Assembly (NCBI GenBank): GCA_965204575.1 | Contig: OZ241993.1 | Location: 32,001 to 96,000 of the forward strand | From: an uncultured candidatus Porisulfidus sp. | GTDB lineage: Bacteria; Pseudomonadota; Gammaproteobacteria; Poriferisulfidales; Poriferisulfidaceae | Length of the DNA: 64,000 nucleotides | Reading direction: 5' to 3' | Part shown: positions 33,081 to 35,204 of the stretch, piece by piece | Layout of the letters: every line of letters starts with the position of its first letter | How positions within the stretch are numbered: the stretch's first letter is position 1 | Translations under genes and position numbers: made by a program | The notes under the pieces: model-generated | Told to the model about the DNA's origin: nothing | Seen by the model: only the letters and a program-made list of their open reading frames with translations | The model's database searches: none

Positions 33081-33518
33081 TCAGCCGCCGCAGCCGCCGA
33101 TGGTTACTTTGACTTCCCGCACGCCGGAATACGACTTGCCGCCCGCTTCGACCAGTGCCACGACGTTGGATGTCCTGAGCATCTTCACCCGGGTCGAGAC
33201 ATACGGAACCGAATCGGCGGTCAGATCGTACGTGGACGTCAACGGCAGAGGATTCTGCTCGACCACGATGCTGATCCGGGTCACACCTTCCAGCGTCGTG
33301 GAAACCGAAATCGGGACCACTGCGCCGTTTTCCGCAATGTCGGGGGCGGTAATGGTGATCGCGTCGCTGGGTGCCGGCTCGCTGCTTGCCAACATGTCGA
33401 TCAGTGCGCCGGACTCTTGGGCCTCGAACGCCTCTTTGGGCCAAGCGGCCTGCACGGAACCCGCCACGCATAGCGTCCCCAGGCCTAGACCCGCTGTCAG
33501 AAAAGTTCTTCGATCCAT
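33081..33518 (-). CDS. soxY: SoxY sulfur carrier
   Basis: MDRRTFL Tat signal from ATG 33518; C-terminal VKVTIGGCGG. Confidence 0.97.
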   Translation of the reverse strand: MDRRTFLTAGLGLGTLCVAGSVQAAWPKEAFEAQESGALIDMLASSEPAPSDAITITAPDIAENGAVVPISVSTTLEGVTRISIVVEQNPLPLTSTYDLTADSVPYVSTRVKMLRTSNVVALVEAGGKSYSGVREVKVTIGGCGG

Positions 33519-33537
33519 GGTTTTGTTCTGGGAATTA

Positions 33538-34788
33538 CTAACATAACTTGACAGACTCGCGTCTGCCATATTCTGCAATTATTTGACGCTTCCCAGGCCG
33601 ACTGTGGCGGGAGACCCCGCCGGTGTCGCCACCTCCACGTCCAGCCGCCCCATTCCCGAAGGCCAAAATGTTCAATGCGGCGTTCACATCCGCATCGTCC
33701 GCATGCCCGCAAGCGGTGCACTTGAAGTCTGTTCCATTTCTGTTTCTCTCATCGACGTGCCCGCATGAATGGCAGGTCTGGCTGGTGTACGCCGGAGGCA
33801 CATGGCGCACCTCCATCTTGTAGTCCAGGCAGAGCTCCAGCGTGCCCCATGCGCTGGCCAGTATCTTCCGGTTCAGAGCCGCCTTCGCCTTCACGTTCCT
33901 GCCGGGTTTCTGTTTCGTGCCCCTGGCCGATTTCGTCATGCCCTTGATGTTCAGCTTCTCGACATAGGCCACGTCGTATTCTGACGCAATTCCCTTGCTG
34001 ACGTGGTGCGCCCAGTTCAACCGGGCGAAGCGTTCCGCATGGAATGCCCTCTGCAATCGAACTTTGGTGATCTTCCTGCGATTGCTTCCCTTCGCCTGCC
34101 GCGCCATCTTGCGCTGGTAGCGCCTGCGCTTGGCCTCTTTCCACGCTAAGTCAGGCCCCGGGTGCTTCGTGCCATCCGACAATACCGCCCACCCGTCCGC
34201 GTTCACGTTGCGGTCGATGCCCACTTCCTTGATCGTGTGAGGAAGACTGGCTTCCGTCTGGACTTCATAGGTCAGGTAGGCGTACCAGTTGCCACATTCG
34301 TACTTGATCTGGCCGGACTTGAACTCGCCGTCCAAGTAAGGGTTGTTGCCGACTATCTTCATCCAGCCGACCTTCTGCACATACAGGCTTTCTCCTGCTA
34401 CCTTGGAACAATAGCGGTCTAATGGAAACGAAGGCTCGGCCGTCCACTTGCCGTGGAACTGGGGAAGTTTCCGGTTCAATTTTCCTCCTGTCTTGCAGTC
34501 CTTGAAATATTCACGGTAAGCCGTCTCGATGGGTTGCAGGGAACTCTTCACCACATACGCCGAATAATCCTGCAACCACTTGTAACTGTGCCTTCTCAAA
34601 ACGGTGAATACCTTGCCCAACGAGAAATAAGTCCATTCCGGCTTGATTCCGAATTCGTATTCGTCCCTGAGCTTCCCGACCATGTGGTTCCAGACGAAGC
34701 GGCAGGCCCCGGCGGTGCCGTGCAGTTGCCGGTTCTTTCTTGCAGAACCCGGATGCAGGCGGTAGCGGACGGTGCGATGGACTTTCAT
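33538..34788 (-). CDS. tnpB: TnpB RNA-guided endonuclease
   Basis: N-terminal YRLHP..GACRFVWN, RuvC-I VGIDRN, RuvC-II YVEKLNI, YTSQTCHSCG..CTACG zinc finger, RuvC-III DADVNAALNI. Confidence 0.96.
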   Translation of the reverse strand: MKVHRTVRYRLHPGSARKNRQLHGTAGACRFVWNHMVGKLRDEYEFGIKPEWTYFSLGKVFTVLRRHSYKWLQDYSAYVVKSSLQPIETAYREYFKDCKTGGKLNRKLPQFHGKWTAEPSFPLDRYCSKVAGESLYVQKVGWMKIVGNNPYLDGEFKSGQIKYECGNWYAYLTYEVQTEASLPHTIKEVGIDRNVNADGWAVLSDGTKHPGPDLAWKEAKRRRYQRKMARQAKGSNRRKITKVRLQRAFHAERFARLNWAHHVSKGIASEYDVAYVEKLNIKGMTKSARGTKQKPGRNVKAKAALNRKILASAWGTLELCLDYKMEVRHVPPAYTSQTCHSCGHVDERNRNGTDFKCTACGHADDADVNAALNILAFGNGAAGRGGGDTGGVSRHSRPGKRQIIAEYGRRESVKLC

Positions 34789-34794
34789 GGGAAG

Positions 34795-34823
34795 ATTCTG
34801 ATGCCGGGTTTAGAGTCTGTCAA
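34795..34823 (-). promoter_or_regulatory. Sigma70-like promoter for tnpB with -35 inside the TIR
   Basis: Minus strand TTGACA-N17-CAGAAT-N6-ATG. Confidence 0.65.
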
Positions 34824-34856
34824 GTTATGTTAGTAATCCCCTTTATTCTCTCCCGG

Positions 34857-35204
34857 CTACAGAGTGTGTATGAATTCGACAATCTTGTCGATTTCCTCTT
34901 CCGTCAGAATCTGGTGCTTGCCGAACGGCGGCATCATGGCGTGCGGCCGGAACTGGGTCTGATCCCAGACATTCTGCCGCAAGACTTCCTTGTCGGGGAA
35001 ACGTGCCTGCATCGCGACCAGCGGCACGGAAATGGTGCCCGGAACTTCGCCCCCCGCGATCGAATGGCAGGAGAGGCAGTTCCCCTTCTTACTGTCGAAG
35101 GCGATTTGCCGCCCTTCTTCGATCATTGCGTCGTCCGCCTGCGCCAATGGCGCGAAGCCTACGCATGCGACGACGAGCAGCAGCGACAAGCTAGAGAATT
35201 TCAC
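34857..35204 (-). CDS. soxX: SoxX cytochrome c
   Basis: KKGNCLSCH, MMPPFGKHQILTEEEID; signal peptide from GTG 35204. Confidence 0.95.
   Translation of the reverse strand: MKFSSLSLLLVVACVGFAPLAQADDAMIEEGRQIAFDSKKGNCLSCHSIAGGEVPGTISVPLVAMQARFPDKEVLRQNVWDQTQFRPHAMMPPFGKHQILTEEEIDKIVEFIHTL

Follow-up and report, generated by a model that had tools for sequence, protein, structure and literature searches.

IS1595 is a family of DDE insertion sequences (ISs) that are relatives of eukaryotic Merlin. Its members usually generate target-site duplications (TSDs) of 8 bp and have terminal inverted repeats (TIRs) starting with GG, according to the available text of one description (PMC8101967). Elements that carry only tnpB are described without TIRs and TSDs in the accessible portion of their source (PMC3627910), as are IS200/IS605 elements in the accessible portions of two others (PMC13565253, PMC3119063). 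In the passages available from a 2023 paper (PMC10711439), the TnpB guide RNA (omegaRNA) has a pseudoknot between the five guide-flanking nucleotides and an apical loop, with a U-130A/A-3U rescue in ISXfa1, and the Fanzor RNAs of eukaryotic TIR/TSD transposons have the TIR in the scaffold, which goes ~15 nt past the TSD. The same passages raise the question of why TnpBs are linked to IS200/605 and IS607 alone, whereas Fanzors are found on many transposon families. A 2026 review (PMC13565253), in its accessible part, considers prokaryotic DDE-OMEGA associations rare, suggests rigid target recognition as the cause, and names ISL2, IS630 and IS1031 as rare cases of prokaryotic tnpB genes beside DDE transposases. 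The stretch of DNA analysed here, 64,000 nucleotides (nt) of contig OZ241993.1 from an uncultured candidatus Porisulfidus sp., is called the window. It carries a mobile element with a tnpB gene in the spacer between soxX and soxY. This element is very probably a non-autonomous DDE element of the IS1595 type that has tnpB as cargo. Its sequence makes it reasonably probable that the right TIR is folded into the omegaRNA and that the guide comes from the flank.

Ends, target sites and candidate partner transposase

All coordinates are those of the window, in which the element is oriented on the minus strand. The element, its gene and its ends are the following.

33530-34841, minus strand: mobile element with tnpB, 1312 bp, in the soxX-soxY spacer
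34813..34841, minus strand: left TIR GGGGATTACTAACATAACTTGACAGACTC, 29 nt; tip and TTGACA core as in IS1595-family elements of relatives
33530..33558, minus strand: right TIR, 29 nt, pairing with 34813-34841
34842..34849, minus strand: left TSD copy AGAATAAA, 8 bp, 7/8 match to the right copy
33522..33529, minus strand: right TSD copy AGAACAAA, identical in the empty sites of L176 and L177, the nearest relatives; proposed first 8 nt of the guide
34788..33538, minus strand: tnpB open reading frame (ORF), 416 amino acids (aa), C-terminal end GRRESVKLC-TAG
33540-33538, minus strand: tnpB stop codon TAG, within the right TIR
34795..34823, minus strand: promoter-like TTGACA-17-CAGAAT, 10/12 consensus matches, -35 box inside the left TIR

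The TIR arms are complementary at 28 of 29 positions (97%), and their 25-nt core is found at these two places alone in the window, with 0 occurrences expected in 100 shuffles. In the alignment of tnpB copies homology begins and ends precisely at the repeat tips. Each copy features its own matching TIR pair, GGGAATTAT(G/A)TA...TTGACA, whose length is 24-29 nt across the family. The left end was scanned for a hairpin and none was seen. The TSD copies AGAACAAA and AGAATAAA of the window element differ at one base. At 32 distinct TnpB-element sites from this genome and relatives the two TSD copies agree at 8/8 positions (21 sites), 7/8 (8 sites) or 6/8 (3 sites); the set is defined by an agreement of at least 6/8, which left out three sites at 5/8 or below, together with one locus that repeats a site.

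The unoccupied site, with no insert, is present in 10 of the 11 same-genus loci, the other locus being without an anchor. Its sequence is the soxX stop followed by gggagAGAACAAAACCATGG / ccgggagAGAACAAAACCATGG. A contig from an RNA library (run X2) joins position 33521 straight to 34842 with a single repeat copy; the short side of this junction has 14 letters, unique in the window. Both alleles of the empty site exist in nature, the AGAACAAA form in the nearest relatives and the AGAATAAA form in the RNA-library contig. The insertion has split soxY from the Shine-Dalgarno-like motif GGGAGAG, which lies ~9 nt before the ATG in empty sites and is now on the soxX side, 1.3 kb from soxY (window 33517-33545 and 34850-34856, minus strand). 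The tnpB ORF ends 18 nt upstream of the soxY ATG, and soxY may need transcriptional read-through and coupling to the tnpB tail for its translation.

The tnpB product matches PF07282 (67 bits), PF01385 (46.6 bits) and PF12323 (30.1 bits), all above cut-off, its Pfam domains being HTH_OrfB_IS605, OrfB_IS605 and Cas12f1-like_TNB. Among NCBIfam models it reaches 206.5 bits with guided_TnpB NF040570 (cut-off 100), and stays below cut-off with IS200_TnpB (155.8 bits against 425) and IS607_TnpB (81.6 bits against 350). Its closest natural relative of solved structure is ISDra2 TnpB (8bf8/8exa, E 5e-26), and the alignment spans the length of ISDra2-like chains. The RuvC-type motifs IDRN, VEKLN and DADVNAALNI are present; we take them to hold the catalytic D/E/D residues of RuvC. 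A previous sequence-only reading of the locus had noticed that the ORF runs into the TIR and that its tail past NAALNIL looks poorly conserved. Both observations hold: the stop codon lies inside the right arm, and the protein tail differs among sister copies while the DNA retains covariation of the RNA type. The promoter-like sequence is unique within 33400-34950 and is a consensus match alone.

The DDE transposase domain of the IS1595 type (PF12762, DDE_Tnp_IS1595) is found in 24 of the 41 related genomes, including 15 of the 16 that carry this TnpB, a figure that expresses co-occurrence only, among relatives that are not independent. The autonomous transposase elements of relatives, whose length is 1.25-1.4 kb and whose transposases score 189 and 183 bits with NF033547, share the TIRs of the tnpB elements (L080/L096, L099/L171, L083, L073/L094/L161 and L097). 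The TIR of L080, GGGAATTATGTATTTAACTTGACAGAGG, forms identical ends at 8 sites within one genome, and that of L099, an autonomous element of the same genus, reads GGGAATTATGTAGGTAACTTGACAA compared to GGGAATTATGTAGATAACTTGACAG in the TnpB element L067. TSDs of autonomous elements match at 8/8 positions at 16 of 16 sites. The window genome has 0 matches to the Y1 (HUH) TnpA family PF01797 and 0 to the serine recombinase family PF00239. The element is not of the IS200/IS605 type: it has a 29-nt TIR, its family has TSDs at 32 sites, no hairpin is seen at its left end and its genome is without Y1 TnpA. It is not an IS607 element either, with 0 PF00239 matches and an IS607_TnpB score under cut-off. 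An IS605-type insertion nested in a mini-MITE (miniature inverted-repeat transposable element) was dropped as an explanation, all copies having one architecture and the TIR tip taking part in RNA pairing.

The window genome, assembled as a single contig with 98.75% completeness, contains six sister copies of the element with 73-85% DNA identity to the window copy, and has 18 PF07282 matches at 16 loci, two of which are split in two. In the two sister copies at G000:C1:1618249-1619468 and 435815-436996, apparently frameshifted pseudogenes with TIRs and TSDs still in place, the zinc-ribbon domain extends over two frames and is matched by PF07282 in two parts. A fragment of 129 nt (G000:C1:1695-1823) shares 95% identity with the 5' part of the window tnpB, nearer to it than every full-length sister copy, and may be the remnant of a source copy. 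Seven more elements of the same genome, from two other tnpB subfamilies, have TIRs and TSDs (3 at 8/8, 4 at 7/8). The third subfamily, with six loci (e.g., 164753 and 1469364), features different TIRs, GGGGCTCCGAGGTTTTGTGTGGAAA / ...TTCCACAC...GAAGCGCC, and also has 8-bp TSDs and a G at the position preceding the left TSD (-1). TnpB homologs with ~40% identity are found in Caldilineaceae, which belong to another phylum (L127-L130). Their elements have a TIR starting with GGGGCTTATATA, perfect 8-bp TSDs and tip-loop complementarity GGGAC/GUCCC (see below), and are without the GAAGCGTCAA motif. This likeness suggests an old association or a transfer within a shared community.

Two further elements of the window genome carry related ends with other cargo. 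One, of 565 bp (G000:C1:16578-17142), has the same TIR type, GAGAATTATGTAGCAAAATCC... / ...GGATTTTGCTACATAATCCCC, a perfect TSD AAAATCGC and two small ORFs of 86 and 66 aa without Pfam match. The other, of 1966 bp (G000:C1:585386-587351), has related TIRs, a perfect TSD TCGAATTT and ORFs of 310 aa and 223 aa, neither with a Pfam match. The 310-aa ORF has NPPW, presumably the motif of N6-adenine methyltransferases, and the cargo of this element might be restriction-modification-like.

Predicted RNA structure at the right end

The right ends of 56 related elements were compared over 190 nt (alignment A1). The features of this region in the window are the following.

33530..33719, minus strand: predicted omegaRNA scaffold (alignment A1), given as the analysed extent and not as a mapped 5' end
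33647..33663, minus strand: stem-loop S1, with the 7-nt apical loop CGGGAAU (GGGAAU at 33657-33652)
33583..33592, minus strand: GAAGCGTCAA, in which GCGUC closes helix S2 with GACGU 33641-33637
33530..33582, minus strand: terminal module of 53 nt, folding as a single imperfect hairpin with the right TIR as its 3' half
33549..33568, minus strand: apex hairpin UGGCAGAC-GCGA-GUCUGUCA, 8 bp when the flanking U-A (33568-33549) is counted
33530..33535, minus strand: TIR tip AUUCCC, proposed 3' strand of a pseudoknot with the loop GGGAAU

Structural conservation among homologous loci is present in the 56 right ends, where helices S0, S1 and S2 display compensatory changes. In the S1 stem 96.1% of the alignment cells are paired and two pairs are altered on both sides. 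The helix made by GCGUC with GACGU, 70 nt upstream, is paired in 99.6% of cells in the 52 sequences with letters there, and encloses a variable stem that has compensatory changes of its own.

Downstream of CGUCAA the right ends are 35-59 nt long, the 53-nt length of the window being found in 17 of 55 unique variants, followed by 44 nt (15), 56 nt (8) and 41 nt (6). Nearly all of these 55 variants fold into a single hairpin that begins 3-7 nt past CGUCAA and finishes 7-11 nt ahead of the tip. Its 5' half follows the changes of the TIR that are specific to each subfamily (AUACGA/UCGUAU, ACAAAAGU/ACUUUUGU, GAAGAUUGGC/GCCAAUUUUC). The terminal modules count 114 G.U pairs versus 14 A.C 1x1 mismatches, and 41 of 52 of them have a more stable fold on the sense than on the antisense strand. 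For the 53 nt of the window the sense fold has -14.7 kcal/mol (z -3.36, 1 of 200 shuffles as good) and the antisense fold -7.0 kcal/mol (z -0.93). The G.U/A.C bias and the better sense fold indicate selection of the terminal hairpin on the tnpB-sense strand, for which a role as RNA is the simplest account. The sequence-only reading had singled out in this module a hairpin with a GNRA loop that overlaps the TIR (GGCAGAC-GCGA-GTCTGTC, 33567-33550). Its stem is real, with 5 of the 8 pairs of the apex hairpin altered on both sides across the family, but it is merely the apex of the hairpin that covers the whole 53-nt end. Conservation of the GNRA loop was not borne out, the loop being GAGA, GTGA, GTTA, AAT or longer elsewhere. 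The motif GAAGCGTCAA, which that reading had placed just upstream of the hairpin, is indeed located at 33592-33583.

The loop GGGAAU of S1, at -128 to -123 from the element end, is complementary to the tip AUUCCC, with 97.9% of cells paired in the 56 sequences. At the loop-tip pair 109-261 A-U is replaced by C-G in five sequences (the four of Caldilineaceae, GGGACA/AGTCCC, plus L053) and by G.U in seven.

RNAalifold also predicts a long-range helix GCGG/CUGU between A1 columns 28-31 and 240-243 (window ~33710-33707 with 33553-33550). It joins the start of the analysed region to the inner TIR with one-sided variation, and may be spurious. A search of Rfam with permissive filters over 33300-35100 returned no family, just a chance-level match to atpB (E 8.2).

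Guide assignment and competing explanations

The guide assignment that we favour uses the following two features.

33529-33510, minus strand: proposed guide AGAACAAAACCATGGATCGA / AGAACAAAACCAUGGAUCGA, composed of TSD and flank and including the soxY ATG (33519-33517)
34850..34853, minus strand: positions -4 to -1, GGAG, which adjoin the left TSD copy on its 5' side and resemble a transposon-adjacent motif (TAM), their putative role

Two sources of the guide had been put forward by the sequence-only reading: the flank AGAACAAAACCATGGATCGA, or a fixed stretch inside the element following a scaffold that ends at CGTCAA. The first is favoured by the end of homology at the TIR tip, the empty site in 10 genomes, the pairing of the tip with the loop, and a purine at position -1. 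The TnpB pseudoknot joins guide-flanking nucleotides to an apical loop, and the guide would therefore begin directly past the TIR tip. In L176 and L177, the two nearest relatives, the empty site matches the guide proposed in this way exactly. An 18-mer of the flank has no match in IMG/VR.

The flank on the left side has a signature. All 32 TnpB-element sites have a purine at position -1 (binomial 4.7e-10), compared to 9 of 16 in the small control set of autonomous elements (Fisher 1.6e-4 versus TnpB elements); in all seven elements of the two other tnpB subfamilies this position is a G. Position -3 is never T and position -2 is C in 2 of the 32 sites. The mirror position on the right, 14 of 32, gives no signal. 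The purine motif has the place and the strand expected for the TAM of TnpB, provided that the right TSD is the start of the guide. That it acts as a TAM supporting homing is a tentative proposal from site comparison.

The events may be pictured as follows. An IS1595-type transposase acting in trans would have moved the element, in which tnpB and the omegaRNA gene replace the transposase between IS1595 TIRs (GGGAATTAT...TTGACA), into the soxX-soxY spacer, making the 8-bp TSD. Expression of tnpB would start at the promoter whose -35 box is in the left TIR, and the omegaRNA would be processed from transcripts that read through the right end. The inner right TIR would provide the 3' arm of the long terminal hairpin of the scaffold, and the tip AUUCCC would pair with the apical loop GGGAAU, ~125 nt upstream, to make the pseudoknot next to the guide. 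The first 16-20 nt outside the element, namely the 8-bp TSD and the following flank, here AGAACAAAACCAUGGAUCGA, would serve as the guide. The ribonucleoprotein would cleave element-free copies of the chromosome, in which 5'-R-D-R precedes the TSD and the flank follows it. The occupied site would escape cleavage, since there the TIR tip places CCC at the TAM position. Repair from the occupied copy would restore or spread the element, which amounts to homing. A wider scenario is possible, though we hold it with less than even confidence: IS1595 elements would have captured a TnpB lineage of sponge-associated Gammaproteobacteria and Chloroflexota, in a way similar to the capture of Fanzors in eukaryotes, the 3' stem and pseudoknot strand of the omegaRNA would have been built from the TIR, and the TAM would have been relaxed to R-D-R with CCC as anti-TAM. 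In that scenario a relaxed TAM would let TnpB home into near-random sites chosen by a DDE transposase, and the uniform purine at extant sites would mean that only TAM-flanked insertions persist.

Several observations weigh against the flank guide and its homing role. The left TSD copy mismatches the guide at position 5, and the X2 contig has the left-copy variant. Covariation in the pseudoknot is confined to a single pair and to about two independent lineages; its loop encodes Gly-Asn and its tip is a transposase site, so that the complementarity could be partly fortuitous. The apex hairpin is also terminator-like in a simple scan. The control of autonomous elements is small, with 8 of its 16 sites from one IS of one genome. 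TnpB TAMs are reported as T-rich in the accessible text of one paper (PMC10530073), unlike the degenerate purine R-D-R, and the available part of the 2026 review assigns the Fanzor 3' TSD to the scaffold and the 5' TSD to the TAM (PMC13565253). Contigs of two RNA libraries, which cover a small share of the stretch, include the soxX side and the empty junction and none on the element; the other public runs, of unrecorded kind, likewise consist of contigs. Finally, the only IS1595 transposase gene of the window genome (G000:C1:1081611-1082527) is frameshifted near 1082219; its left end, GTGAATTATAAAGAAAGGTTGATGA, is TIR-like, and a right TIR was sought and not found. With this sole transposase frameshifted and without detected right TIR, the tnpB elements are probably immobile in this genome now.

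Of the competing explanations, the best surviving, although unlikely, takes the right-end hairpin only for a terminator, 3'-end stabiliser or insulator: the RNA would end in the TIR, the flank signature would be due to the transposase or to chance, and there would be no donor-site guide. The stem TGGCAGACGCGAGTCTGTCA followed by AGTTATGTTA is flagged as terminator-like, and a UUUU run follows the stem in several subfamilies. However, most variants have the U-rich stretch base-paired within the longer hairpin, and soxYZ, which lie downstream on the same strand with the Shine-Dalgarno displaced, presumably need read-through. A terminator also leaves the tip-loop complementarity without a role and has to face the absence of the purine signature from autonomous elements.

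A fixed internal guide is improbable. The scaffold would end at GAAGCGUCAA and the next 16-20 nt (AUAAUUGCAGAAUAUGGCAG) would travel with the element and aim at a target other than the donor site. G-GAAGCGTCAA is near invariant in gammaproteobacterial right ends (33 sequences; 52 with letters in A1), and just past GAAGCGTCAA conservation falls and length varies. TCAA also resembles what we take to be the right-end cleavage site of IS608. Against this, CGUC pairs with GACG within a nested helix in 99.6% of cells and is not a free guide-adjacent strand; the right-end folds and the S2 pairing speak against CGUCAA as the scaffold end. The sequence past it folds on itself, burying the candidate guide in a hairpin in the 41- to 44-nt variants. 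No plausible target emerged: searches of the genome with 20-mers of seven copies, allowing up to 4 mismatches, gave sister copies and scattered weak matches only, and an 18-mer had one match in IMG/VR, on an unrelated AT-rich contig that diverges right past the 18 nt, which is about the chance number by our own, uncomputed estimate. The left-flank purine would be unexplained, and the four Caldilineaceae relatives are without the motif yet have the loop-tip complementarity.

Another explanation is that the TIR and the hairpin, along with the subterminal TTGAC(A/G) repeats, are transposase-binding features at the DNA level, the RNA-like signals arising from a decaying palindrome. Autonomous elements do have a second TTGACA 25-35 nt inside one end, some with a small hairpin (L080), and the linker can be read as a degenerate inverted copy of the TIR. 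The excess of G.U pairs and the better sense fold, which point to selection on one strand, and the linker that tracks the subfamily-specific changes of the TIR make this explanation quite improbable.

Lastly, it is very improbable that the TIR tip itself is the guide, its single-stranded tail (with or without the TSD) aiming TnpB at its own or rival IS1595-type TIRs: a conserved tail of 7-11 nt, (U)AUAAUUCCC, does follow the hairpin and its sequence reads outward at both ends, but it is too short for a guide, its distance from hairpin to tip varies (7-20 nt), it would cut its own ends, and the loop-tip pairing and flank signature would be unexplained.

Relation to described systems

This family shares traits with several described systems. 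It resembles the TnpB-only 'IS1341-group' of IS200/IS605 in its single tnpB of ~400 aa with helix-turn-helix (HTH), OrfB_IS605 and zinc-ribbon domains, in having no tnpA, in the predicted structured RNA over the 3' end of the gene and in the many divergent copies per genome. Unlike that group it has 24-29-nt TIRs and 8-bp TSDs, and no left-end hairpin was seen. Elements annotated as 'IS200/IS605-family TnpB' may have TIRs and TSDs, and those that do belong to another transposon family, which calls for caution in annotation.

The ends are those of IS1595: the TSD has 8 bp and the TIRs are near-identical to those of elements with an NF033547/PF12762 transposase in relatives. The ends of the ISNwi1 group have the consensus 'ggnnatTAT', which GGGAATTAT would fit. 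The difference to IS1595 is that the transposase gene is absent and that tnpB, with an omegaRNA gene that uses the right TIR, is the cargo. Unlike the cases of ISL2, IS630 and IS1031, tnpB stands alone between the TIRs here, its RNA architecture and flank signature can be made out, and IS1595 is not named among those cases in the accessible part of the review. Literature searches, limited to listings and passages, returned no account of TnpB in IS1595-type elements.

The family is a compact (~1.3 kb) bacterial counter-example to the restricted distribution of TnpB. Its ends are defined, empty sites occur naturally and diverged copies number in the dozens; a direct reading of these yields a scaffold, a pseudoknot and a candidate for a relaxed TAM. 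If the TAM is truly no more than a motif of the purine type, the nuclease would also have practical value as a small editor subject to few sequence restrictions.

With TnpB-omegaRNA of ISDra2 and ISXfa1 the family shares a homologous protein, predicted stems with a guide-adjacent pseudoknot, and a scaffold end at the transposon boundary, as these systems are presented in the available text (PMC10711439). It differs from them in that the last stem and the pseudoknot strand come from the TIR of a DDE transposon, the proposed TAM is a degenerate purine motif and not a T-rich 4-5-mer, and the TSD would be half of the guide. A similar organization is that of Fanzor1/Fanzor2* in eukaryotic cut-and-paste transposons (e.g., SfAV Fanzor1). 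There too, in the accessible parts of two papers (PMC10711439, PMC10530073), a non-autonomous TIR/TSD transposon has a nuclease of the TnpB family as its sole gene, with the TIR in the guide-RNA scaffold and a guide from beyond the element, as it probably is here. The differences are bacterial hosts, a protein of the TnpB type (NF040570), a pseudoknot seemingly kept that is reported as lost in Fanzor1, and a TSD that is apparently part of the guide and not of scaffold and TAM as in the available portion of the 2026 review (PMC13565253). The element appears to work like a Fanzor-bearing non-autonomous transposon whose protein is TnpB and whose ends are those of IS1595; it is not a Fanzor.

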